Source: an uncultured cyanobacterium (GTDB lineage: Bacteria; Cyanobacteriota; Cyanobacteriia; Phormidesmidales; Phormidesmidaceae). Taken from it: a stretch of DNA of 64,000 nucleotides. The stretch is taken from positions 448,001-512,000 of the forward strand of contig CAWBZI010000002.1 of NCBI GenBank assembly GCA_963793265.1. The letters are read 5' to 3'. The position numbers and the translations under genes were made by a program. Below, piece by piece: positions 45,892 through 64,000 of this stretch (position 1 is the first letter of the stretch; each line of letters opens with the position of its first letter). The notes beneath the pieces were generated by a model. That model had not been told where the DNA came from. It ran no database searches and worked only from the letters and a program-made list of their open reading frames with translations.

Positions 45892-46155
45892 ATGAAGTCT
45901 ATTTTTAGTCTGGAACATAGTGCATTTCGTAAGTGCATGGTCATAGCCCGAAAGGAAGCTAATTTGACCCAGGCAGCGCTCGCTAGTGCGATTAAAAAGC
46001 CTCAGTCTTTCGTTGCGAAATATGAAAACGGCGAAAGAAGACTAGATGTGATCGAATTTATCGTTATTACTCACGCAATCGGCGTAGATCCTTGTGAAAT
46101 TGTACGAAAAGTCGAGCAGTCTCTTCGTACCACATCCGGCGAAGGAGAGATGTGA
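45892..46155 (+). CDS. XRE-family HTH, RM controller (C) protein-like
   Basis: ARKEANLTQAALA..KPQSFVAKYENGERRLDVIEF; overlaps the next gene (GTGA). Confidence 0.85.
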   Translation: MKSIFSLEHSAFRKCMVIARKEANLTQAALASAIKKPQSFVAKYENGERRLDVIEFIVITHAIGVDPCEIVRKVEQSLRTTSGEGEM

Positions 46156-47069
46156 ACACACCAGAAGTCATCAGGCTAGCAACTCAATACTTAAACGATT
46201 TATCTGGTCATACGTTCGACGTATTGAGTATTTCTAAACCCATTTCCCCCAATGCCGCCGTTAACCTCGCCAAAGTAATTTCTAAGCTGTCACCCCTGCT
46301 AGGAAACTTGATTGAATTTAACACGGTTGAATTTCTAAATCAGCAAGAAATATTTACGCCTTTCGGGGAATGGAGAAGGCAGGATCCTGGATTTCCAGAT
46401 GCCGTGTTCATCGGCAACGTGCAACCTACACCAGGGTTAGAAATAAAAGCGTGGTTCCCATTGGCTACTGAAATAACAGCCCGCTTCAAAGATAGTCAGA
46501 ATCACTTTCAATTCGATCAAACATACGTTGTACTGCTAGCTTGGTTGCCTGAAGCCGTAATCTATAAAAGGCCCAAAATCCTGGATGTGTGCGTCGTGTC
46601 TGGTCACTCAATAGCAAAAGCAAGAGATGATCACTACCACAATCCCCCTGATTATCTGGTGCTTGAACCAGAGGACACAACCCAGAGAACGCAAAACTTA
46701 CAGCAAACAAATACCAGCGGACATAAGTTTCAAGGAACAAATAAGGAATTTTTAGAGGCTAATAGAATAGTTGAATCTTGGGGCAGCGACGGAAAAGCTT
46801 ATAAGCCCACACGAGAGTACCAAGAACGCTTACGAGAACTTATCACTCGCTTCAGGTACAGATTAGACACTAATTTCGCAAAGATGGACAGAATCAAGCA
46901 TCCAGAAATTGAAACCTTCAAAAGGCGCGTCTCTAGAACAGAGTTTTCTGGCTTAGAAGTTAGAGAATGGAGAAAACTTTTAGCAAGCCGACAGGATGAT
47001 TTAATCAAATCCGCACTGAGAGAACATCTCAAAATCAGAGAAGAGAGCGTTGATGAGCTACTTGATTAA
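46152..47069 (+). CDS. Putative type II restriction endonuclease
   Basis: GNLIE...QDPGFPD...LEIKAW (PD-ExK); between a controller and a DNA MTase. Confidence 0.7.
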   Translation: MNTPEVIRLATQYLNDLSGHTFDVLSISKPISPNAAVNLAKVISKLSPLLGNLIEFNTVEFLNQQEIFTPFGEWRRQDPGFPDAVFIGNVQPTPGLEIKAWFPLATEITARFKDSQNHFQFDQTYVVLLAWLPEAVIYKRPKILDVCVVSGHSIAKARDDHYHNPPDYLVLEPEDTTQRTQNLQQTNTSGHKFQGTNKEFLEANRIVESWGSDGKAYKPTREYQERLRELITRFRYRLDTNFAKMDRIKHPEIETFKRRVSRTEFSGLEVREWRKLLASRQDDLIKSALREHLKIREESVDELLD

Positions 47070-48123
47070 ACCTCTTAACGCCATAATAGAAGTAGGTTTC
47101 GTCGATTTCACAGGCATAAGCTTTGCGGTTGAGCATATTAGCCGCCAAAGAAGCACTAAAAAGCCCACCAAATGGCTCCCAAACAACGTCTTGGTCACTG
47201 CTCGACGCCTCAATGATCAGTTTCATCAAATCAAGCGGCTTTTGGTTTAGATGAACTGCCTTACCCTCAACAGATTTGATTCGTTCGTCGCTGCGTAAAG
47301 CGGATCGATCCCAGACGTTGGTAAAGCCATGCGGACAATCAAACTTAGAGCGCATCTTTCCCCACTCTTCACCCGTCAATGGCCGCTCACCATCTACAGA
47401 AAAGTAAGGTTTGCTATCTGGTTTGCCATGCTCGTTCGCATAGGCAACTAATCTCTCGAACATTTCAATGGGCGGAAAATACCACAGATGCCCTTGAGTA
47501 AAATACTTCCTCGTTGCGGCATCTGCTACACCACAAGCCAAATTAGCTCTACATAAAGGCAAACCTGATCTTAACCATTCCTTTCGCAGCCATTCCTTAA
47601 GCATCAGGCCATCAAGCTTGACTTCTCTGACATATTGAACGCAAACCTCGGTAACGACTGGGAAGCGCCTTATTTTCTTTGTATTGACATTGCCCGCAAT
47701 ATGGCCTTTTCCCTTATTCCATATATTGCAGTTGACATAGCGCCAACCAAATTTCTCAAGTATTGGATGAACTGTAGCCCACCCGATCTCCGAATTCCAA
47801 AACCAAAGCGTTGTAGCAGGCAGTGCAAATCTCGACCAAGATTCTATGTGAGGCTCGTACCACTCAGGCAGGTCAAAATGATCTGACGTATCACCTTCAA
47901 ACCCCAGAATGCCATATCCACCGTCTGAGACTATTACCGTAGGCCGTTCCCAAAATTTATAGTGCTCAATGCTATCGCCCAAACTCAAGCTAACGTTGCT
48001 GTTATCCCAAGCAGAAAAAGCAAGCTCTTTATTAAGACAGACAGATTTACCACGTCCAACTGTACTTGTTGCTTTATTCTTTTTTGCCTTCGATAGGCTA
48101 TGGGAAGGCTTAAGCAAACTCAT
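47035..48123 (-). CDS. Amino (N4-C/N6-A) DNA methyltransferase, beta class
   Basis: GDS, IVSDGGYG (motif IV variant), IWNK, HLNQKPLDLM, VWEPFGG (motif I), CEID. Confidence 0.88.
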   Translation of the reverse strand: MSLLKPSHSLSKAKKNKATSTVGRGKSVCLNKELAFSAWDNSNVSLSLGDSIEHYKFWERPTVIVSDGGYGILGFEGDTSDHFDLPEWYEPHIESWSRFALPATTLWFWNSEIGWATVHPILEKFGWRYVNCNIWNKGKGHIAGNVNTKKIRRFPVVTEVCVQYVREVKLDGLMLKEWLRKEWLRSGLPLCRANLACGVADAATRKYFTQGHLWYFPPIEMFERLVAYANEHGKPDSKPYFSVDGERPLTGEEWGKMRSKFDCPHGFTNVWDRSALRSDERIKSVEGKAVHLNQKPLDLMKLIIEASSSDQDVVWEPFGGLFSASLAANMLNRKAYACEIDETYFYYGVKRFNQVAHQRSLL

Positions 48124-53307: not shown

Positions 53308-54426
53308 CTATGTCCAGTAGAGTATTTCTGCATTAGGAAACGTTTGCGCTATCTTCTCTTCAAAAAACTCTCGTAGTGACTGAGTAGTGGGTTTGTCATA
53401 GACGTACTTGATACCACCAAACTTGTTTCGCTTCGTAGATCGCGATTCCATGCCCATATCCAATTTGCTTTTTGGATACCACTCGTTCAAAACCTTTTTG
53501 GATTTAGAGGTATAGCGATGGCTAATCAGTTCAAAGGTAAGATCGCACTCGAAGTCCAAAGCGGCTGCGAGCTGATCGAACAGAGCATCGTAGTGGCTTT
53601 GCCAGTCTGTAAAGGCCATAATTGGCGCAATCACTAGGCCGATAGTATAGCCACCGCCCCCTCTTTCTTTGGGTAGGGCGAGCTGTCTGAGCGCGGCGAT
53701 GCGATCGCTCACCTTTGCCGTCCCCCCTTCAAACCCCTGCGCCACCGGATCAGCATTCACACTCGCCCGACACCGCGTATGCCCGTTATGCTCAATCTCT
53801 AGTAAAGGCTGCACGTTATCAAACTTAGATACCCACCGCAATCGCTTATCAGGCTGCTGACCAAAGTAACGAATGCACTCACCCAGGCTCCCGGTTAAGT
53901 GCTCCAAGCTCAATGGATCGGTATAGCAGCTCACCTCGAAGCTAGTCGTTTCTGTGTCTGAACTATAGTTAGCCGTATTCTCTAAGATCTCCAGCAAGTT
54001 CGCAAATACTCGAATTACTGGTGGCCCAGACAAGCTGCTTGCCAAATAACAATACTGACAGTGAGCCGGACACCCTTCTGCCAAATGAAACTGCCAGTCC
54101 GCAGACGGCGGAATTGGCTGAAGCTTAAACGCACTCGGCGGCGCAGTCACCACCGCCATTGTCTGCTTAGCCTTCGCATAAGTCTCTCTTTCTGTCTCAC
54201 CTCTCAGGCCCACCACCCTATTGTTCTTTAGCTCAACAATCGGCAGTCCCATATCGCTAATCCGTTGATATATTTGCTGGCCCCAGGGTTCTTCTAGTGC
54301 CGCTGGGGTGAACATGACTTGCTTAGGCATCCACAAGCGGGTAGCCGATTGAGGTGGAGATTGAGGCGTTTTGACTGAGTTTTTGACTGGGGTAGGGGAG
54401 AGGGCTGGCATGGGCGATTGCGTCAA
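53308..54426 (-). CDS. Spore photoproduct lyase family radical SAM protein
   Basis: GCPAHCQYCYL, FEVSCYTDP, KRNKFGGIKYVY, ILYWT. Confidence 0.85.
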   Translation of the reverse strand: MTQSPMPALSPTPVKNSVKTPQSPPQSATRLWMPKQVMFTPAALEEPWGQQIYQRISDMGLPIVELKNNRVVGLRGETERETYAKAKQTMAVVTAPPSAFKLQPIPPSADWQFHLAEGCPAHCQYCYLASSLSGPPVIRVFANLLEILENTANYSSDTETTSFEVSCYTDPLSLEHLTGSLGECIRYFGQQPDKRLRWVSKFDNVQPLLEIEHNGHTRCRASVNADPVAQGFEGGTAKVSDRIAALRQLALPKERGGGGYTIGLVIAPIMAFTDWQSHYDALFDQLAAALDFECDLTFELISHRYTSKSKKVLNEWYPKSKLDMGMESRSTKRNKFGGIKYVYDKPTTQSLREFFEEKIAQTFPNAEILYWT

Positions 54427-54829
54427 CAGTATGCGTCAACAGTACAGGTAATTTTTATCAGCGTTATATACATATAGTTTGACAAAAAAACGCAGAGACA
54501 GTACCGCTCTCAGGTACGGTTTTACGACCTCAAAAGCTGTTCCTTTCGATACCTTCTGCCTGTAGCAAAGACTGTTAGCAAAGGTTGCGGGCAAAGACCG
54601 CCTACAAAGGAAGCGCCGTAAAAAATATAACCGTGAAACACTTTGACGCCGTAAATTTTTTGACGGCAAAGCAAAAGCTACCGTGAAGAAATCAAAAATA
54701 CTTACATAAAGCATTCTTGTTGAATTAAACTACTGAAGCCTTCAAAAGGCCATATTAAAGTCGCTTTTGCGCAATTTCGAGGGCTACGCCCTACATCGTC
54801 ATCTGCATCCAGCAGGCTTATTTTGCGGC

Positions 54830-56272
54830 ATGGACTTCAAGCACCATATATTTATCAGCTATAGACACATCGATGACAAACCTTATCCAGCGGGCTCTAT
54901 CGGTTGGGTATCAAAGTTTCATCACATATTAGAAACTGCTTTAGCTGTCCGCAGAGGAGAAGAGCAGCGCTTGTGGCGAGATGTCACGAGGATGAAAGGT
55001 AACGAAAACCTAAGTGAAACGCTATTCGACACGCTCTCAGAGAGTGCTTTGCTAGTCTCTATTGTGTCACCGTCTTACTTAAAGTCTCAGTGGTGTTCGC
55101 GAGAACTCCGTCATTTTTGCCAGGAGGCCGAAAAAACAGGCGGGCTCGGCGTCGGTGAGCATGGATCTAGACTGTTTAAAGTTGATAAAGAGCACATACC
55201 GCTAGATCAGTGCCCTCCAGAGTTTCAAACATCACTTGGCTATCGGTTCTATGAGTTTGACGAGGCACAGTATCCCAAGGCGCTCGATCAGCCTTCTGAA
55301 AAAGTGGTAGGCGAGAAGTATATGGCTGTTATAGAAAGGCTTGCCAGAGAGATATGCGAGACGTTAGATACTTTAGAGACATCTTCTGAAGAAAGCCCTC
55401 AGCCGTCTAAAAAGCTCATCTATCTCTCAGAAACTACCGATGATCTGAGAGAGATCAGAGAGAGTATTCGTCAGAGCTTAGAAATGGACGGGCATCGGGT
55501 ATTGCCGTCGCAAATGCTGCCGCCAGAGGCAGACTTCTCTGAGAAAGTATTAGAGAATATGTCGCAGTGCGAGATGTCTATTCATTTGGTTAGTCCGAGT
55601 GCCCATCGTACTCAAGAGTTCCGTCAAAAGCTGATGGCGGCTAAAACTCAAGAGCAGATCAACATCTCTAGTCAGTGTGTTGAGAATAAACAGAGCTTGA
55701 CTCGCATATTTTGGATGCCACCGACCGAAACAGCAGATAGCTCAGACCCGTTTATCCGATCCATTCAAAGCGAGCCTAACTTTTTGAGTATGCCGGTTGA
55801 GTCATTAAAAACAACCATTCAAGATCAGCTACAGCAGCAAAGGGCGATCGCACTTGCGCCTGTAGGTAACGGGTCTAGCAAAGTATATCTTGACTGCGAT
55901 GAGGATGATTTTTTATATGCAGACGATATTGAGCCTATATACGACTGGCTCAGAAAGCGTTTTGATGAGGTTGTTTTGCCAGAACACGGTATGCACAATC
56001 TGAGCAGCTCAGAGGCCAGATTAAAGCAGTGCGAGGCTGTCTTGATTTACTACGGGCGCGCGCGCGATTTTTGGTTTGAAAGGCGGATATGCGCGCTGCA
56101 AAAAGCGCTTAGAAACGATCGCCCGCAGCCATTGCGAGCCAAGGCTATCTATGTGTCAAGACCAAACACGCCGAAAAAACAAAACCTCAACTTAAACATT
56201 CCTGTGATTAACGGAATAAGAGAATTTAGCGCCGAGATTCTCAATGTTTTTTCAGAGCAACTGGAGGCATAA
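54830..56272 (+). CDS. TIR-domain protein with two further TIR-like Rossmann modules
   Basis: IFISYRH..WV..LWRD..SPSYLKSQWCSRE; IYLSETTDDL..SIHLV; VYLDCD..CEAVLIYYG..W. Confidence 0.85.
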   Translation: MDFKHHIFISYRHIDDKPYPAGSIGWVSKFHHILETALAVRRGEEQRLWRDVTRMKGNENLSETLFDTLSESALLVSIVSPSYLKSQWCSRELRHFCQEAEKTGGLGVGEHGSRLFKVDKEHIPLDQCPPEFQTSLGYRFYEFDEAQYPKALDQPSEKVVGEKYMAVIERLAREICETLDTLETSSEESPQPSKKLIYLSETTDDLREIRESIRQSLEMDGHRVLPSQMLPPEADFSEKVLENMSQCEMSIHLVSPSAHRTQEFRQKLMAAKTQEQINISSQCVENKQSLTRIFWMPPTETADSSDPFIRSIQSEPNFLSMPVESLKTTIQDQLQQQRAIALAPVGNGSSKVYLDCDEDDFLYADDIEPIYDWLRKRFDEVVLPEHGMHNLSSSEARLKQCEAVLIYYGRARDFWFERRICALQKALRNDRPQPLRAKAIYVSRPNTPKKQNLNLNIPVINGIREFSAEILNVFSEQLEA

Positions 56273-56275
56273 ACA

Positions 56276-59200
56276 GTGCAGCTATTGATTAAGCCTTCTA
56301 CTCGAACCAATCCTTTCCCCGGTCTGCGCCCCTTTTTATTAGGCGAAGAAGATCTGTTCTTTGGGCGCGAAGGACAGTCAGATCAGCTATTAGAAAGACT
56401 CTACAGCGAGCGTTTTTTAGCAATCGTAGGAGCCTCTGGTAGCGGTAAGTCTTCTTTGGTACGCGCAGGTCTTTTGCCATCGCTCTATAGCGGTCTTTTT
56501 GTTTCGGCAAACGAAGCATGGCGCGGTGTGGCCAGCTCTAAGTGGAAAATTGCCATATTTAGACCCGGCAATGACCCAATTGAAAATTTGGCAGAGGCGC
56601 TCAATCGGCCTGAGGTGTTTGGGCGATCGCCTGACGAAAAAGATGCCAGCATTTATGCAGCGCTCAATAAAATCACGCTGAAGCGAGGGCACTTAGGCTT
56701 AGTAGAAGTCGCGCAGCAGGCTCGGATGGTAGAAAAAGAGAGTCTGTTAGTCGTGGTCGATCAGTTTGAAGAGCTGTTTCGGTTTAAGCAGAGCGCGCAG
56801 TCTCTAGAAGCTGAAGACAAAGCCGCTGCTTTTGTGAAACTTTTGCTGTCGGCTGTTAAACAAAGGGATGTGCCCATTTTTGTGGTGCTGACGATGAGAT
56901 CGGATTTTATTGGAGACTGCGCTCAGTTTCGCGATTTGCCAGAGGCGCTCAACGATAGCCAGTATTTGGTTCCGCGTCTGACGCGATCGCAGCTAAAAGA
57001 TGCCATTCAAGGGCCAGTAGCGGTTGCCAACGGCGAGATTACGCCTCAGCTCGTCAACCGATTGCTGAACGATGCCGGAGAAGATCCCGATCAGCTTCCT
57101 ATTTTGCAGCACGCGCTGATGCGAACGTGGGAATACGCATCAACTTCACAAGGGCCGCTCGATATGGCTCACTATGAGGCCATTGGCGGTGCTCGGGAGG
57201 CGCTTTCTCGCCATGCCGATCAAATTTATCGCAAGCTACCTGATGAGCGATCGCGCCAACTCGCCCAAAACATATTCAAAGCCATCACCGACCGAGGCCC
57301 TGACAACCGCGAAATTCGCCGCCCGCTAAAGCTCAAGCAAATCTGTGAAGTCACTGGCGCTAGTCCCAAAGAGGCCATTACTGTTATCAATGCTTTTAGC
57401 GGCCCCCAATGCTCTTTTTTAACGCCGCCTGCGGCCACCCCAAAAAAGGGAGATAGCGTTATTGATATCTCTCATGAGAGCCTCATGCGCAACTGGCAGC
57501 AGCTCAAAGCGTGGATAGATGAAGAAGCCTCATCGGCTAATATATACCGGAGACTCGCCCAAACAGCGGCGCTTCAGGCAAACCAAAAAGCGGAATACTA
57601 TCGCGGCCCTGAGCTATCTATTGCCCTAGAATGGCTAGAAAAGCAGCAGCCCAGCCAGCAATGGGCACAGCGATATGCGCCAAACTTTGAGCAGTCTAAA
57701 GCATTCTTAAAAGAGAGTGAGAAAGCTGAGCTGAAATTTAAGCAGGCTGAAAAACGAAAGCTTCAGGCGAGCGTAGTTTTTGGCTTATCGTTTCTTATTC
57801 TAAGCGTTTTTCTAGGCTGGTCGGTAAGAGAACAAAAGCGAATCAACCGCCAGGTAGAAAACGCCGAGATAGCGGCCACTGCCGAAAAGCTCATCGTGCA
57901 GTCAAACCAGATTAGAACAACTCAGCCAAACCTGCGTCCAACGGCTGCATTACTGGCCGTAGAGGCGTTTAATCAGCTTCAATCCGTCAAAGAATCGACC
58001 GTTGAAGCGAAGGGAAACCTACAGCGCAGCATCCTTCAGCTACCCCAGGCCATCTATCGTTCACAAGACACCAACACTCACGCCTTTAGCCCCAACAATC
58101 GATACATCGCCACAGGGGGCTCTAATGGAAAGGTTAGCCTCATCGATACCACTAGCCAAAAGCTAGTCTCTACGGCTAGCCATGACTACTCCGTTTCAAA
58201 GGTTATCTTTAGCAGCGACAGTCAGTATCTTGCAACGCTTGGCAGCGACCATCAAGCTAAGCTAATCGACGTTAAAAAGAGAGAAGAAATCGCAGAAGTG
58301 GAGCACTCAGATCCCATTTTTGACATTAGCTTTAGCAATAATGGTCAGTATCTATCAACGCGCAGTAAAGACGGCATAGCAAAGGTAATAGATACCCAAA
58401 CAGGCGATTTGATTACGACTATCTATCACGATGCCCCTACCGGATCGAACTACTTCAGCAGCGACAGCAACACCCTCATCACAACTAGCGGCGATGGCGC
58501 TGTGAGAATGGTCAATTTGAAAACCAAAGTCGTTACTAATATTGCTGAGTACAGTGACGACCAGATAAACGTTGTATTTAGTAGCGATAGTAAATACGTT
58601 GCACTCTACCCGACTAAAGAGAGTAAAGAGATCGAGATCATTTCAACTGAGACAGGCGAGAATATTAAAACGCTCAGCTATGAGGAAGAGATAGAAGGAC
58701 TAATATCTAAGGTCATTTTCAGTCCTAGCAGTGCCTATTTAGCAGTCGGTACCAGTGAAGGCGCTTTAGAAATATTCGATCTAACAACCAAAACAGTGGT
58801 ATCGACAGCCGAGTATCAAGGGCGTATTACAGAGCTTGCCTTCGATGTAGAGGGAAACCGCTTGGCCGTATCAATGAGCGGTAGCGAAGACTCAATAGAC
58901 ATTATTGACTTAGCCACTAAAAAGACCATTCATGAACTAGAGACTTATAATGATGCGACAACCCTAAGCTTTAGTGCTGACGGTAAATATTTGATTGCAC
59001 AGAGCTACTACGAAATAGAGATATTTGATTTAGAAAAAGATGCGTTAGTCAATGACATCTATCACTCTGGTGGCATCGGGAACGTCGCAATTAGCCCGGA
59101 CGAGCAGTACGTAGCCACCTATGACAACAGCGGCGTAGTCAGAATCATCAAGCTCAGCGTAGGTGAGATTTCGTCCTTGTTTCAGCATAGCGGAATTGAT

Positions 59201-61792
59201 GGGTTTTCCTTTAGCGATAGCAGCGAGTACTTAGCGACAAGAGGCTCAGATAAAACCGCAAAAGTTATCGAAGTTGAAACAGGCAAAATTATCTCTTCTA
59301 TTGAACATGAGTCTGCGATTTCTGAGATGTCTTTTAGCAAGAACAGTCGATACTTTGCTACAAACGATCTTTCAGGTGCGTTTAAGTCTATTGAAATAGA
59401 CAACCAAAAATCGTCGCAATCGCAGTTTAGATACAAAAACTCTCAAATTGATAGGTCTTTTGACGAAGATAAAAAGAGAATGGCTTTGGCGCTAGATCAA
59501 ACCAACGTTAAAGTGATTGATGCTGCTTCAGGTGAAGTTTTAGTGACTAGCACCAGCGACGCATCGATAGAGAACATTAGCTTTAGCGATAGTGGCCGTT
59601 ACTTGGCCACTCGTGATACCGGGTATTCTGTAAAGATTGTGGATGTGGAGACAAGAGAAGAAATCTCTGATATTGATCATGACTTTAGAGTAAAAGGATT
59701 AGCTATTAGCAACGATGAAAAATATATTGCGACTGGAACAGGTGACGGATTTTTAAGAATTATAGATCTCTCGACAGGAGATCTGATTGAACAGCTTGAA
59801 ATTCCTGATGATGATTGGACGTATCAATTCACCGGAGACGGACAGTATATTTTAACGAGAACGCCACGAGGAAAAATCAGAGGCATTCGAGCCTCAACAG
59901 GCGAGCAAATTTACGCTATTGATAGTAGCGATGATGAAGAAGGTGAGAGCGATCAGGGGTCGTGGAATATGAAAGTGAGCGAAAACGGCAAGTTTTTTGT
60001 GATGTCGAACGCTCAGAGTCCCAACGTGAAGGTATACAAGACTGAGACTGGCGAGATGGTTAGAGAGCTTGAGCATGGCGACTATGTTAAGTATGTAACC
60101 TTTAGCGAAAATAGCGAGCACTTGCTCTCTCGTAGTATTGATAATGTCATTAGAGTCTCTAACACTACAAATGCAGACGAGACAGCCCCTATTAAAGTGC
60201 AGACGAAAAACTCTATCCAATGGACGAAATTTAGCGAAGATAGTAAAGCATTAGCCTACTACACCATTGATGGAGAGGTCGGCATTATCTCTACCGAGAC
60301 AGAACAAACCGTTTCACTCGATCATGATTCTTCGGTTAACTTTCTCAGCTTTAGTGAAGACAGCAAGTATATGGCTACAGGGAGTGCAGATAAAACGGCC
60401 AAGCTAGTAGAAGTTGCTACTGGTGAGGTGGTTAAAACAATTGAATCAAACGGCTCCGTTGCTAGCGTAGTGTTTAGCGAAAACAGTCAATATATAGCTG
60501 CTGTTAGTAACGACAGAACGGCGCAAGTCGTTGATGTGTCAACGGGTGAGGTCGTTGGATTTGTTGAGCACAGCTCTGAAATTATGGGCGTTGCATTTAG
60601 CCCCGACAGCAGGATCTTTGCCACCTACGGTAAAGACAGAGTGGCTCAACTTATTCAGACAGACGGCGAGCAGCCGATTAATAGCATTGCGCATGAGGAC
60701 GATATTACAGGCATAGCGTTTAGCGAAGATAGCCAGTATGTCGCAACGGGTAGTGCTAATGGCGTCGTGAAGCTGCTGAAAGCAGATACAGGCGAAGAGA
60801 TTACGGTGATTGCGCACGAAAATGCTATTAACTTTCTTACGTTTAACCATAGTTCTAATACTTTGATCACCTCTAGCGTTGATGCGTCGCTGTATGTTAC
60901 GGAGATATCTGATACGGATTTTGAGGTGCAAGATGTGTGCGATCGCCTGGATGAAAACCTGTCGGTCAGCACGTGGAAAAAGTATATGGGAACCCCGCTC
61001 GAAGACTACACGCTCACCTGCGAAAACGCGCCTGTTGACATCAGCCTGCTTACAGAAGCAGGCAGCTTGGTAGAAAGAGAAAAAGAAAAAGAAGCCCAGT
61101 CGCTGCTCAAACGTATCCAAAAAATTGCGCCCAAAACCGACCTGTATCCGCACAGCTTAGATGTAGAAACTGAAATAGACTTTGTTATTGACGTTTGGAA
61201 AGTCAATCGACTCATTAAAGATGGCACCCAAGCAGCTCAGAGTAAAAAGATAGAGAAGGCTGCTGAAAGCTTCAAAGCCGCGCAAAACGTTATTCCGGGC
61301 GTCGATTTGAACACCGCTACTTTTTCTGTAGATACCGATCCAGAAGAGATTGCTAAATCCATAGCGGCTCGGTCGATCATCAAAGAAAAAACGTTAGACA
61401 GTAGCTCAAATCCAAGCGTTAGCCGAATTCAAGGAATTCTCGCTAACTATCAAAGGGCAAAAGAGCTTGACCCAGATGCCGATATATCGTCTTCTCAATG
61501 GGATCGCATCTGCTGGCTAGGCAGTCTTAATCGCGTTTATGAAGAGGTTATGACTGCTTGCGATCGCGCTATCAGTCAAGAGCCCGATTACATTGGCTGG
61601 CGCGATAGCAGAGGAATTGCGCGCGCCCTAAAAGGCGACAGGGCAGGCGCTATTGAAGACTTTCAAGCCTACATCAATTGGAATGGAAGCCCGCCCCGTC
61701 GAAAAGAGCAAAGACAGCAGTGGGTGAGTCGCCTTCAGAATGGAGAAAACCCTTTTACTGAAGCCTTACTCAAAGAACTTCGAGAAGAATAA
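56276..61792 (+). CDS. STAND (nSTAND1-like) NTPase + TM + beta-propeller repeats + TPR
   Basis: NPFPGLRPF..FFGRE, Walker A GASGSGKSS, LVVVDQFEELF, TMRSDF, LPILQHAL, HESL..W; TM near 57775-57825; about 23 WD40-like repeats; DSRGIARA TPR. Confidence 0.9.
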   Translation: MQLLIKPSTRTNPFPGLRPFLLGEEDLFFGREGQSDQLLERLYSERFLAIVGASGSGKSSLVRAGLLPSLYSGLFVSANEAWRGVASSKWKIAIFRPGNDPIENLAEALNRPEVFGRSPDEKDASIYAALNKITLKRGHLGLVEVAQQARMVEKESLLVVVDQFEELFRFKQSAQSLEAEDKAAAFVKLLLSAVKQRDVPIFVVLTMRSDFIGDCAQFRDLPEALNDSQYLVPRLTRSQLKDAIQGPVAVANGEITPQLVNRLLNDAGEDPDQLPILQHALMRTWEYASTSQGPLDMAHYEAIGGAREALSRHADQIYRKLPDERSRQLAQNIFKAITDRGPDNREIRRPLKLKQICEVTGASPKEAITVINAFSGPQCSFLTPPAATPKKGDSVIDISHESLMRNWQQLKAWIDEEASSANIYRRLAQTAALQANQKAEYYRGPELSIALEWLEKQQPSQQWAQRYAPNFEQSKAFLKESEKAELKFKQAEKRKLQASVVFGLSFLILSVFLGWSVREQKRINRQVENAEIAATAEKLIVQSNQIRTTQPNLRPTAALLAVEAFNQLQSVKESTVEAKGNLQRSILQLPQAIYRSQDTNTHAFSPNNRYIATGGSNGKVSLIDTTSQKLVSTASHDYSVSKVIFSSDSQYLATLGSDHQAKLIDVKKREEIAEVEHSDPIFDISFSNNGQYLSTRSKDGIAKVIDTQTGDLITTIYHDAPTGSNYFSSDSNTLITTSGDGAVRMVNLKTKVVTNIAEYSDDQINVVFSSDSKYVALYPTKESKEIEIISTETGENIKTLSYEEEIEGLISKVIFSPSSAYLAVGTSEGALEIFDLTTKTVVSTAEYQGRITELAFDVEGNRLAVSMSGSEDSIDIIDLATKKTIHELETYNDATTLSFSADGKYLIAQSYYEIEIFDLEKDALVNDIYHSGGIGNVAISPDEQYVATYDNSGVVRIIKLSVGEISSLFQHSGIDGFSFSDSSEYLATRGSDKTAKVIEVETGKIISSIEHESAISEMSFSKNSRYFATNDLSGAFKSIEIDNQKSSQSQFRYKNSQIDRSFDEDKKRMALALDQTNVKVIDAASGEVLVTSTSDASIENISFSDSGRYLATRDTGYSVKIVDVETREEISDIDHDFRVKGLAISNDEKYIATGTGDGFLRIIDLSTGDLIEQLEIPDDDWTYQFTGDGQYILTRTPRGKIRGIRASTGEQIYAIDSSDDEEGESDQGSWNMKVSENGKFFVMSNAQSPNVKVYKTETGEMVRELEHGDYVKYVTFSENSEHLLSRSIDNVIRVSNTTNADETAPIKVQTKNSIQWTKFSEDSKALAYYTIDGEVGIISTETEQTVSLDHDSSVNFLSFSEDSKYMATGSADKTAKLVEVATGEVVKTIESNGSVASVVFSENSQYIAAVSNDRTAQVVDVSTGEVVGFVEHSSEIMGVAFSPDSRIFATYGKDRVAQLIQTDGEQPINSIAHEDDITGIAFSEDSQYVATGSANGVVKLLKADTGEEITVIAHENAINFLTFNHSSNTLITSSVDASLYVTEISDTDFEVQDVCDRLDENLSVSTWKKYMGTPLEDYTLTCENAPVDISLLTEAGSLVEREKEKEAQSLLKRIQKIAPKTDLYPHSLDVETEIDFVIDVWKVNRLIKDGTQAAQSKKIEKAAESFKAAQNVIPGVDLNTATFSVDTDPEEIAKSIAARSIIKEKTLDSSSNPSVSRIQGILANYQRAKELDPDADISSSQWDRICWLGSLNRVYEEVMTACDRAISQEPDYIGWRDSRGIARALKGDRAGAIEDFQAYINWNGSPPRRKEQRQQWVSRLQNGENPFTEALLKELREE

Positions 61793-61945
61793 CTACGCCT
61801 TCAGGTGCGGTTCGACGAGCCTAAAACTAATCTCTTCTATTCTTCCTAATTAGGGATGAAGGATGCCTTCGAACTATTAACCATAGTAAGACAGCCACAA
61901 ACAAGCAGGTCGTATTTTGTCACGGCAAACCTTTTAGGAGAATAA

Positions 61946-62332
61946 ATGCAATACAGCGAAATCATTAAGAACGTTCAAGCCGCCGCGAAAGTGGACGATA
62001 AAGCGGCAGCAGAGAAAGCAATTCAGGCCACGCTAGAAACGCTCAAACAGAGAATTATCGGGGATGAAGCTGAGAACTTGGCCGCTCAGCTTCCTGAAGA
62101 GATTGGTCAGCACTTACGCGGGCGAGCGGGCGAAAATGGCGATCACTTTCCCCTCAAGGAGTTCTATCAAAAAGTCAGTCAAATCGAAGGTGTTGATCTA
62201 GAAACAGCAGCAACCCACGTTCAGGGCGTTTTCTCTGCGCTCGGCTCAGCCGTTACCTCAGGAGAGTTTTCAGATATCAAAAATGACCTATCAGACGACT
62301 ACGCAGAACTCTTTCCTGCTAATGCCTCTTAA
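61946..62332 (+). CDS. DUF2267 family protein
   Basis: AGGAG RBS; ATLETL..EAENLAAQLPEE..VFSAL. Confidence 0.85.
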   Translation: MQYSEIIKNVQAAAKVDDKAAAEKAIQATLETLKQRIIGDEAENLAAQLPEEIGQHLRGRAGENGDHFPLKEFYQKVSQIEGVDLETAATHVQGVFSALGSAVTSGEFSDIKNDLSDDYAELFPANAS

Positions 62333-62355
62333 CAGAGCCATCTAACCAACTGGTT

Positions 62356-62781
62356 TTAAAGCGGGGGAGGGTGTTCGCTTGAGCTGTACAAAATTTTGCG
62401 GAGATTCAAGAGCCCAAGGCGATTAAGCTCTAGCTTTTTAACGGTAGCCCGGCCAATGGCTGTTAAACCTACTATTTCCGTAAAACCTTCACTCCAGGCA
62501 AAATGATCGCTCCATCGGTGAGAGCGAGGATTGTAAAGTGAGACTATAGTTTGAGTAACTGGATCGACAGCATGAATATTGACGTATTTTCTGTTGTTGC
62601 AGCCCTGGCATGCAAAAGCTAGGTTTGAAAGCACATTCTGGCCCGCTTTTGCTTTTGGAATAATGTGGTCAACAGAAAACGAATCCGTAGAGAATGCTTC
62701 TTGAGAGCAACAGTATTCACAGCAAAATTTCGCCCTCTGTGCGACTTTTTCTTTGAGCTTTAAAGGAACTCTCTTACCCAC
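62356..62781 (-). CDS. HNH endonuclease
   Basis: CCEYC, VDHIIP, NLAFACQGCNNRK, YNPR..WSDHF, GRATV..LELN. Confidence 0.92.
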   Translation of the reverse strand: MGKRVPLKLKEKVAQRAKFCCEYCCSQEAFSTDSFSVDHIIPKAKAGQNVLSNLAFACQGCNNRKYVNIHAVDPVTQTIVSLYNPRSHRWSDHFAWSEGFTEIVGLTAIGRATVKKLELNRLGLLNLRKILYSSSEHPPPL

Positions 62782-63193
62782 TATGGGTTCGAGGTTGTAG
62801 CTCTAGCTCTTCAATAATTTGTTTCACAGATGTATTGCGGAGCTTAGCTAACTCAGATACCGCAGTAAGCCTTGTCACGTTAGCCGCTTCCACTTGATCT
62901 GAAAAAGCTATTAGTGCTTTATGATCTTCTGCCGTCAGCGTTTCGTCTTCACGTTTTTTCATGAGTGCATAGTAACGCTGCCAATCAATTGCATCTACGC
63001 TGTGATTGACTACTTGGATCAAATTAGTCTCCGCTACTGAAAGACTATGTTCTGTCGCTCCTTTGATTTTATTAGAAGCTAGCACTTCTTGAATAAGCTG
63101 CGCTACGTAAACGTCAGGAGATAGCCCCGCTGCTTGCGCTGCCTGCTTTAATTGCTGTTCAGTTTCGGGCGGTATTTGAATAGTCAGAGCCAT
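62774..63193 (-). CDS. Hypothetical antitoxin-like protein with RHH-like N-terminus
   Basis: MALTIQIPPETEQQLKQAAQAAGLSPDVYV; overlaps the HNH gene by 8 nt. Confidence 0.7.
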   Translation of the reverse strand: MALTIQIPPETEQQLKQAAQAAGLSPDVYVAQLIQEVLASNKIKGATEHSLSVAETNLIQVVNHSVDAIDWQRYYALMKKREDETLTAEDHKALIAFSDQVEAANVTRLTAVSELAKLRNTSVKQIIEELELQPRTHSG

Positions 63194-63207
63194 TACACAA
63201 TCCTTTA

Positions 63208-64000
63208 CTAAACGGTCATCGTGTCCAAAACTCGATTCAGCTTTCCGCTCTTATAGCCTTCCAAATCCAAAGTTACATAGGTAAAGCCAAAACCTTGAAA
63301 GGCTTCTACTAAAGCTGGTAAATCGACTTTGCTGACAAATCCTGTAATTTCTTCAGGCATTAGCTCAATTTTTGCCGTTTCTCCATCTGAGCGCACACGC
63401 AAATTTCGATAGCCCAAGTCACGCATGTAGCGCTCAGCGCGGCCTACTCTATGCAGCTTTTCGGTAGTGATCAGCTCGCCGTATGGGAAGCGAGAGCTAA
63501 GGCAGGGCTGAGAAGGCTTGTCCCACCAAGGGAGGCCAAGCGATTTGGAGAGTTCGCGCACCTCTAGCTTGGTGATGCCGACTTCTGCTAGGGGCGATCG
63601 CACCCCTCTTTCTTTAGCCGCCGCAATCCCAGGCCGATAGTCTTGCAAATCATCCGCATTGAGCCCGTCTACCACATACTCATAGCCCAGCTCATCAGCT
63701 AGCGGGCGTAGGGTATCGTGCAGTTCACTTTTGCAAAAGTAGCAGCGATTCACCGGATTAGAGGTGTACTGCTCATTGTCCATTTCGTGCGTTTCGACCA
63801 CCTTATGCGCAATGCCCATCTCTGCGGCCTGAGACTTGGCATCGTCAAAATCTTCAGGCATTAAGGAAGGTGAATTAGCTGTCACCGCAAGAGATTTTGA
63901 ACCCAGGATGTCAAAGGCAACTTTCGCGACTAGCGTACTGTCAATCCCACCCGAATAGGCAACGAGGGCACGATCCATTTCGCGAAAAATAGTTTGGAGC
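63208..64000 (-). CDS. larE: ATP-dependent sacrificial sulfur transferase LarE-like (TIGR00268), 5'-partial
   Basis: PP-loop AYSGGIDS, NRCYFCK, DYRPG, PCLSSRFPYG; frame open to the window edge. Confidence 0.85.
   Translation of the reverse strand, partial: LQTIFREMDRALVAYSGGIDSTLVAKVAFDILGSKSLAVTANSPSLMPEDFDDAKSQAAEMGIAHKVVETHEMDNEQYTSNPVNRCYFCKSELHDTLRPLADELGYEYVVDGLNADDLQDYRPGIAAAKERGVRSPLAEVGITKLEVRELSKSLGLPWWDKPSQPCLSSRFPYGELITTEKLHRVGRAERYMRDLGYRNLRVRSDGETAKIELMPEEITGFVSKVDLPALVEAFQGFGFTYVTLDLEGYKSGKLNRVLDTMTV

Follow-up and report, generated by a model that had tools for sequence, protein, structure and literature searches.

In a 64,000-nucleotide stretch of an uncultured cyanobacterium of the family Phormidesmidaceae (GenBank assembly GCA_963793265.1, contig CAWBZI010000002.1, forward-strand positions 448,001 to 512,000; hereafter the window, from whose first letter all plain positions are counted) we describe a pair of adjacent genes, A and B, that forms a conserved, mobile two-gene module. 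Gene A (54830..56272, + strand) encodes a putatively cytoplasmic protein of 480 amino acids with three modules: a TIR domain, a DUF4062/NIR-like domain lacking the catalytic glutamate, and a flavodoxin-like C-terminal module. Gene B (56276..61792, + strand) starts with GTG and encodes 1838 amino acids comprising an nSTAND1 NTPase, a predicted transmembrane helix, WD40 propellers and a helical tail. We propose that B is a membrane-bound nSTAND1 sensor that clusters the separate TIR protein A, which would in turn cleave NAD+ and cause growth arrest or death. We hold this reading to be evenly poised between right and wrong.

The TAA stop of A and the GTG of B are separated by 3 nucleotides (56273..56275, + strand), a spacing that suggests translational coupling; the initial annotation, made from the letters of the window alone, had both the coordinates and the spacing right. 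Gene A lies within the open reading frame 54767-56272, and its ATG at 54830 (MDFKHHIFISY...) is the start common to all relatives. A contig assembled from public sequencing runs covers 55600-57000 with 7 substitutions and 0 gaps, crossing the junction without any indel, and a second one shows no difference from the window over 56003-56439. The runs behind these contigs may include the window's own sample of origin, so conservation of the pair across assemblies is the stronger argument that the stop at 56272 is real. A scan for promoters and terminators found fewer promoter-like sites than in shuffled sequences and nothing usable, and no RNA run carrying the locus is listed among the public ones.

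To follow the pair across genomes, we scanned one genome per species with a sequence pattern. This returned 569 stretches encoding relatives of A, the best 76 of which were examined as loci; a word-indexed search for A yielded 25 protein clusters only. The loci span Cyanobacteria, Acidobacteriota, Verrucomicrobiae, Gemmatimonadales, Burkholderiales, Nitrosomonas, Leptonemataceae and others. Counting downstream reading frames of at least 150 amino acids that start within -60 to +400 nucleotides of the A relative, 52 of 59 open with nSTAND1, matched from profile position 1 at residues 7-21. A six-frame search with a hidden Markov model built from these partners, in which 6 loci with less than 300 nucleotides of downstream sequence were left unjudged, found nSTAND1 on the same strand in 69 of the 70 judgeable loci. 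It is directly adjacent in 62 and lies farther downstream in 6, including L032, where a transposase is inserted, and L078, which is adjacent by the count of reading frames; at L086 it lies upstream on the same strand. At L069 the six-frame search found no nSTAND1, and A itself is truncated there. The transposase fragment at L032 (DDE_Tnp_ISAZ013, L032:9485-10798) sits inside an otherwise intact A/nSTAND1 pair.

The spacing is conserved as well. Among 51 pairs the gap is -4 nucleotides in 19, +2 in 17 and +3 in 5; it is -4 or +1 to +3 in 43 and falls within -38 to +14 in 50, a distribution typical of translational coupling. The initial annotation had left room for the stop being an error and the homologues being fused. 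They are overwhelmingly unfused, and together with the indel-free junction contigs this makes the split between A and B real and conserved.

Within the phylum the pair is rare: a homologue of A occurs in 3 of 401 sampled genomes, this one included, and in both others an nSTAND1-helix-WD40 gene follows immediately downstream, amid unrelated flanks. Here, the pair resides in a strain-specific insertion of about 8.9 kb (54352..63226) that carries A, B, a DUF2267 gene, an HNH nuclease gene and a reading frame of 139 amino acids. Upstream of the pair lie glyS, a Mur ligase gene and an SPL-like radical-SAM gene; downstream are the DUF2267 gene, the HNH gene overlapped by the 139-residue frame, and an NAD-synthase-like gene. 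In a genome of the same genus (G501; SPL 90% identical), glyS, murD, SPL and NAD synthase are contiguous, with about 195 bp in place of 54352-63226. The locus is an accessory insertion, and the pair a mobile two-gene module.

The NTPases linked to A are 44-65% identical to that of B across phyla, against 26-29% for the CHAT- or caspase-fused paralogues of B's own genome; by this measure the A-linked NTPases are a distinct, dedicated clade. A search among longer proteins found no fused A-B form, which is weak evidence. One fusion was found among the 150 matches listed for the C-terminal module of A (see below): P0113, of 1880 amino acids, carries TIR (39-102), the C-terminal module (361-494), nSTAND1 (501-916) and, at its C-terminus, CHAT. 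The hydrophobic helix is missing, and about 8 residues lead from what corresponds to the end of A into the beginning of the NTPase. As a Rosetta-stone fusion it supports functional coupling of A and B, the split form being the rule.

An AlphaFold2 model of protein A, built on 24 relatives (predicted local confidence, pLDDT, 76.8), shows three separate βαβ modules at residues 1-188, 192-345 and 348-480. Module 1 (54830..55393, + strand) is a TIR domain by both profile and fold. Pfam TIR_2 matches residues 7-100 (E 2e-14, 54.6 bits against a cutoff of 28) and is matched in 69 of 69 relatives of A. The closest folds are the TIR-APAZ protein of SPARTA (8qlo_A; Z 13.2, root-mean-square deviation 2.6 over 136 residues) and the plant TIRs of RPP1 (7crc_A; Z 13.2) and RUN1 (Z 12.5). 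The NCBIfam model FxsC_Nterm (NF040588) aligns with residues 6-178 at E 2.3e-15 and 57 bits, below its cutoff of 130, and the matches to ThsB-like models in PADLOC are all weak (best E 3.1e-5, 21 bits).

The predicted catalytic residue is E92 (codon 55103..55105, + strand), which closes the motif WCSRE already singled out in the initial annotation. When 69 full-length relatives drawn from many phyla are aligned (A2), all 69 show E92 and C89, and 68 show W88. In the structure model E92 falls early in helix 87-102, which comes after strand 74-79. It is the presumed counterpart of E642 in SARM1 and E100 in RUN1.

Module 2 (residues 192-345; 55403..55864, + strand) belongs elsewhere. In this copy Pfam DUF4062 reaches 19.1 bits at residues 197-254, below the threshold of 24.7, and it matches 35 of the 69 relatives at E ≤ 0.001. 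Compared profile against profile (hhalign) with four genuine cyanobacterial DUF4062 proteins, the module aligns over 124 columns, which is the whole domain, with a probability of 93.5% and E 2.3e-7. Its fold is nearest to DNPH1 (Z 12.4), the SPARTA TIR (12.1) and the CMP N-glycosidase BcmB (11.9), followed by nucleoside 2-deoxyribosyltransferase (11.5) and the SARM1 TIR (10.7). The same set of fold relatives is given for DUF4062/NIR domains in the accessible part of a recent preprint (10.64898/2026.09.04.749371).

DUF4062 domains act as Glu-dependent NADases in defence, according to the available portions of two preprints (10.64898/2026.05.01.722283; 10.64898/2026.09.04.749371). The four comparison proteins carry the motif S-[YI]-T-[EQ]-x-E-[YF]..A, whose second Glu corresponds to the residue that preprints of 2026 report as essential: E97 in KpSwz, E108 in PsAvs2, E98 in Vulcan, E103 in Vesta and E87 in Eva01 (there followed by Y88). 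In module 2 this column holds R265; of the 69 relatives, 44 have Q at this position, 7 have Y, 4 have E, 4 have F and 7 have a gap. By profile and fold, module 2 is DUF4062/NIR-like, and its catalytic residue has been lost. Because the essential Glu is replaced by Arg here and mostly by Gln in relatives, the module is likely a pseudo-enzyme that serves as an adaptor or regulator, and protein A is predicted to possess one active site, not three.

Module 3 (residues 348-480; 55871..56269, + strand) is a candidate docking piece. Modelled alone on 69 relatives, it folds confidently (pLDDT 90.7, predicted template-modelling score, pTM, 0.87) into a five-stranded, flavodoxin-like domain. The RRS1 TIR is its top fold match (Z 11.2), effectively tied with a receiver domain (10.8), a B12-binding domain (10.7) and TIR-STING (10.6). 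Foldseek found no match in the PDB at E ≤ 0.001, no Pfam, NCBIfam or PADLOC model was matched, and in the ESM Atlas the module matches only clusters named 'hypothetical protein'. D360 and W415 are invariant in the 69-sequence alignment.

The initial annotation had read the second and third modules as further Rossmann/TIR-like units. Both are indeed α/β domains and module 2 does have the TIR fold; for module 3 that fold is only compatible, since its top TIR match is tied with receiver domains. The three modules resemble one another weakly and in register (hhalign E 0.002 for modules 1 and 2, 0.018 for 2 and 3, 0.36 for 1 and 3). Such similarity is too weak for a triplication to be claimed.

A profile of module 3 was searched against 1.84 billion representative proteins and retrieved 2,652 at E ≤ 0.001, 379 of them at E ≤ 1e-30. 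The module ends at most 19 residues from the C-terminus in 148 among the 150 matches listed. We scanned 44 of these proteins, picked by length from the matches listed, with Pfam. On a core of TIR, DUF4062 and module 3, seven of the 44 bear a Ser/Thr kinase and three an adenylate/guanylate cyclase. Other N-terminal additions are CHAT in one (P0028), EAD1 in one (P0084) and an extra TIR in three (P0037, P0087, P0100). From this architecture and from the P0113 fusion we infer that A would engage the NTPase through its constant C-terminal half, that is, the dead NIR domain and module 3.

Protein B opens directly with its NTPase (residues 13-433; 56312..57574, + strand). PF20703, the nSTAND1 family, matches from profile position 1 at residue 13 (E 2.6e-99, 333.9 bits against a cutoff of 27.1), so that B lacks an N-terminal effector, in agreement with the initial annotation. 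Its motifs are the N-terminal NPFPGLRPF, Walker A GASGSGKSS (52-60) and Walker B DQFEE (162-166), with a single P-loop. In an alignment of 48 partner NTPases (A3), GxxGxGKS, DQFEE and the N-terminal NPF.G.R.F are invariant.

The genome has at least five further nSTAND1 genes outside the window, with fused N-terminal heads (C2:144642-148613, C2:151287-155870, C1:1495599-1498460, C6:564007-568443 and C6:451533-456500); the two heads scanned are CHAT and caspase. One more paralogue runs over two overlapping frames, C1:985890-987509 and 987497-989266, which match profile positions 1-248 and then 246-377; it may be a frameshifted pseudogene or use a programmed shift.

Past the NTPase, residues ~498-517 (57767..57826, + strand; Kyte-Doolittle 19-mer 2.11) form the sole strongly hydrophobic stretch of B, which had been read earlier as one transmembrane helix between the NTPase and the sensor. 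We surveyed 58 partners with at least 120 residues past the NTPase, using a 19-residue window at Kyte-Doolittle ≥ 1.6 and flanks of 15 residues. An equivalent helix is found in 52 of them, nearly always about 50 residues past the NTPase. Lys and Arg in its flanks average 5.96 on the N-terminal side against 2.33 on the C-terminal side, with an N-terminal excess in 50 of the 52. By the positive-inside rule, the basic flank of a membrane helix faces the cytoplasm; the charge bias of the family thus assigns the NTPase to the cytoplasm and the sensor to the outer side. B is accordingly predicted to span the inner membrane once, with the NTPase inside and the WD40 sensor outside.

The four helix-less partners carry PAS (L076, L088), GAF and cyclase (L078) or TIR and CHASE2 (L015) tails. 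If the helix decides where the sensor resides, its absence alongside PAS and GAF tails, which are typically cytoplasmic, is expected. A single hydrophobic helix also follows the NTPase directly in four of the five fused-head paralogues, the one without it being C6:451533-456500, so the membrane-spanning layout may be a general nSTAND1 trait and the norm in this genome. The accessible parts of the papers that define nSTAND1 (PMC8195603) make no mention of a transmembrane helix past the NTPase or of an outside sensor.

The predicted extracytoplasmic sensor is a WD40 β-propeller region of about 980 amino acids (residues ~590-1567; 58043..60976, + strand), matched by WD40 and many other propeller families; PADLOC reports HEAT-ARM_XIII over part of it (E 6.8e-23), in addition to P-loop matches of B to mad3 and mad8. 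It has no tandem repeats at the DNA level and hence no sign of recent repeat turnover. The G+C content is 0.41-0.45 over 58000-60500, within the WD40 region, compared with 0.49-0.52 in the NTPase region and about 0.51 in the genome; the sensor part of B and the remainder of the gene may differ in their history. The remaining C-terminal region (60977..61789, + strand; ~270 amino acids) has a weak TPR-like signal: no family matches the last ~270-280 residues at 1e-6, and TPR_9 stays below its threshold of 35 (E 6.9e-6, 26.4 bits). Of the 1300 residues or so that had been read as propeller and TPR, the propellers are thus confirmed and the TPR is sub-threshold.

Sensor tails are swapped between relatives. 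Among 48 complete partners the tail is WD40 in 32, TPR in 2, PAS in 2 and of no family in 7, with single cases of SPFH, DUF4231, RDD, GAF-cyclase and TIR plus CHASE2. Examples in which the propellers are replaced are L015:3518-5719 (TIR_2 and CHASE2), L078:11008-12414 (GAF and adenylate/guanylate cyclase) and L054:10848-11612 (SPFH/Band-7). The L015 tail would place a second TIR on the receptor itself.

STAND NTPases such as Avs proteins and NLRs oligomerise upon ligand binding, and TIR domains cleave NAD+ through a catalytic Glu. We suggest that the pair works in four steps. B would reside in the inner membrane with its propellers outside, as its conserved hydrophobic helix and the charge bias of the family indicate. 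Binding of an extracytoplasmic ligand would release the STAND switch. ATP-dependent oligomerisation inside the cell would then gather several copies of A, docked on the N-terminal face of the NTPase. Finally, composite active sites would arise between the TIR domains, and the resulting cleavage of NAD+ would arrest growth or kill the cell. The last three steps follow the established behaviour of STAND NTPases and of TIR NADases, as known from plant TNLs, SARM1, SPARTA and Avs-type systems. The biological role would be one in conflict or defence. A trans-acting effector recruited by a receptor of outside ligands had been suggested from the letters alone; the conserved split, the conserved helix with its positive-inside bias and the invariant TIR Glu support this in part. 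The Glu-less DUF4062/NIR-like second module corrects the notion of three TIR domains.

Several observations weigh against this proposal. As for antiphage defence, which the initial annotation had envisaged, PADLOC identifies no defence system in the pair, A being only weakly ThsB-like and B having no Avs-type STAND match. PADLOC models pick up 8 of 93 reading frames that flank related loci (E ≤ 1e-10), largely because these frames contain a generic kinase, helicase, TPR, cyclase or ATPase domain; having no background value beside it, this count speaks neither for nor against an enrichment in defence genes. The kinase- and cyclase-bearing relatives point to signalling outputs over killing. In a mirror-tree comparison of distance matrices all three modules of A correlate with the NTPase (r 0.78-0.84), as expected from shared ancestry, which makes the result uninformative for docking; module 3 shows no special co-variation with the NTPase (partial r 0.01, versus 0.53 for the TIR module). 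The helix flanks of this very copy are nearly balanced in charge, about 5 against 4, so the topology rests on the family. Lastly, the topology would require a WD40 region of some 1,300 amino acids to be exported by way of a signal-anchor.

The main rival is a non-lethal function: the membrane STAND would report a cue from the envelope or from cell contact across the membrane, and the cells would adapt. The TIR would then be a scaffold or the maker of a nucleotide signal, and binding of a nucleotide or a partner would fall to the NIR-like domain without its Glu. The Ser/Thr kinases (7/44) and cyclases (3/44) on the common core fit such a role, as do the partner STAND that ends in GAF and cyclase, the two that end in PAS, and neighbourhoods that are not clearly rich in defence genes. 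Against it stand the strict retention of the TIR Glu in 69 of 69 relatives and the patchy distribution of the pair, present in 3 of 401 genomes and here in a strain-specific insertion. In addition, no conserved third gene able to read a signal was seen beside the pair in the loci examined. We judge this alternative rather unlikely, and the strongest of those considered.

The hydrophobic segment could instead be a mere tether or an aid to oligomerisation, with the WD40 region in the cytoplasm recognising phage proteins in the manner of Avs and bNACHT sensors. WD40 domains of the PF00400 type are, as a matter of general knowledge, mostly cytoplasmic; the nearly balanced flanks of this copy and the lack of such a helix in the fused P0113 agree with that placement. 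However, 52 of 58 partners have a single helix of some 20 residues in this very position, with more Lys and Arg on the N-terminal side in 50 of 52, the partners without it bear typically cytoplasmic PAS or GAF tails, and a helix of this length should not be able to return to the same side of the membrane. We regard a cytoplasmic sensor as unlikely.

No publication describing this TIR/nSTAND1 dyad was found in the literature searched, which left the supplementary tables of the TIR-ParA preprint outside. The closest published description is that of the FxsC/FxsT-type TIR-ParA apoptosis systems. In the accessible part of that preprint (bioRxiv 10.64898/2026.10.19.760177), an upstream active FxsC-type TIR is often followed by an inactive TIR, and the downstream ParA is either grafted onto nSTAND1 or forms the cytoplasmic head of a type-II single-pass receptor. 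As far as that part goes, the likeness extends to the two-gene dyad, to an upstream TIR with an intact active site followed by one or more inactive TIR-like domains, and to a downstream NTPase gene that may carry nSTAND1 or encode a type-II single-pass protein whose outside sensor varies. A constant TIR that receives further effectors N-terminally is likewise common to both. The differences are that the pair has no ParA, the first 460 amino acids of 52 partners matching only nSTAND1 and AAA_16; that the TIR of A is only distantly FxsC-like (57 bits versus 130); and that here the middle domain is a Glu-less DUF4062/NIR-like one and the STAND itself would be the membrane receptor.

Could the pair simply be a member of the TIR-ParA group, working exactly as the preprint (10.64898/2026.10.19.760177) proposes? 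The succession of an intact TIR and inactive TIR-like domains would agree, together with the FxsC_Nterm match over residues 6-178 (E 2.3e-15), and the accessible text lists nSTAND1 fusions as well as a 'receptor-like' subtype of type II with a single transmembrane helix. Yet the defining ParA NTPase is absent, the FxsC_Nterm score lies far under its cutoff, and the only ParA-less variants named in that text have their TIR fused to STAND, unlike here. We consider membership quite improbable.

Least credible is that the split results from an assembly or sequencing artefact in a single TIR-STAND gene: one fused relative is known (P0113), against 62-63 directly adjacent split pairs in many assemblies, a junction crossed without indels by public-run contigs and, as weak evidence, the absence of a fused form in the search among longer proteins.

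Returning to the proposed membrane receptor with a separate TIR effector, its NTPase belongs to the same family, PF20703, as the nSTAND1 counter-invader systems of Kaur, Iyer, Burroughs and Aravind (eLife 2021, PMC8195603). As presented in the available text of that paper, these have in common with the pair the logic of effector, STAND and repeat sensor and a bias to multicellular or filamentous bacteria. The other nSTAND1 genes of this genome show the classical fused CHAT/caspase heads. In the pair, by contrast, the effector is a separate protein and no EAD adaptor is common to the two partners. We rejected an EAD-linked conflict system (Kaur et al. 2020, 2021): no EAD family matches A or B at E ≤ 0.1, and a single distant relative (P0084) has EAD1.

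With Avs proteins and the plant TNLs RPP1 and ROQ1 the pair would have in common that STAND oligomerisation is expected to unite TIR domains for NAD+ cleavage, and the TIR fold of A is indeed closest to those of SPARTA and plant TNLs (Z 12.5-13.2). It differs from Avs in its unfused effector, in a sensor predicted outside the cytoplasm and in matching no PADLOC Avs model. An Avs or bNACHT identity was rejected, as there is no fused effector (nSTAND1 begins at residue 13 in B and at residues 7-21 in 52 of 52 partners) and no model match. So was Thoeris: the ThsB match of A is weak (E 3.1e-5, 21 bits) and the insertion contains no ThsA-like gene.

The DUF4062/NIR NADase defence proteins (Swarozyc, Avs2-NIR, Vulcan, Vesta and Evangelion), as far as the accessible parts of three 2026 preprints describe them, are homologous to module 2 over the whole domain and have the CMP N-glycosidase, nucleoside 2-deoxyribosyltransferase and SPARTA TIR as fold relatives in common with it; they differ in the essential Glu, replaced in module 2 (Arg here, Gln in 44 of 69 relatives, Glu in 4 of 69). 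In its way of working alone, the pair may be compared with animal Toll-like receptors and their TIR adaptors: a single-pass receptor exposes a repeat sensor on the outside and engages a TIR protein that is separate and cytoplasmic, the orientation being a prediction here. The inner domain of B is a STAND ATPase rather than a TIR, no homology of the receptors is implied, and the output of the pair is a prediction.

Two further loci in the window deserve mention. The HNH gene of the insertion (62356-63193, - strand) resembles PtuB of the Septu system (E 7.6e-14) and is overlapped by 8 nucleotides by the upstream frame of 139 amino acids, which belongs to no known family; there is no PtuA ATPase beside it in the 8.9-kb insertion. 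Outside the insertion, an N6/N4 DNA methylase gene (47035-48123, - strand) converges on and overlaps a reading frame of 305 amino acids (46152-47069, + strand) that has no Pfam match; the methylase could be an orphan or the remnant of a restriction-modification system.

Altogether, we present the pair as a new variant of TIR-plus-STAND conflict systems, one in which the STAND receptor is predicted to cross the membrane, the TIR effector is detachable, a likely pseudo-NADase would serve as adaptor and the C-terminal module is unnamed and very common. That module has no entry in Pfam, NCBIfam or PADLOC; once defined, it would allow many proteins now called hypothetical to be annotated. The pair may even be a bacterial transmembrane NLR, in which a STAND ATPase with a swappable propeller outside the cytoplasm signals to a detachable TIR NADase held by a dead NADase domain and a docking module. 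The docking module would then define a plug-in family of more than 2,600 protein clusters, by which one and the same receptor is coupled to kinases, cyclases, caspase-like proteases or TIRs. This wider idea is tentative and we lean against it; if true, it would provide a prokaryotic counterpart to the 'receptor plus TIR adaptor' logic of Toll.

Known bacterial NLR-like sensors, such as Avs and bNACHT, detect phage proteins inside the cell and have their effector fused. If B senses the outside and acts through a separate TIR protein, STAND immunity would extend to the envelope, where phage adsorption, cell-wall damage or cell contact could be perceived. The recently discovered NADase domain DUF4062/NIR would have been reused as a catalytically dead adaptor, and the pair would offer a tractable two-protein system for the passage of a signal across the membrane into a STAND switch.

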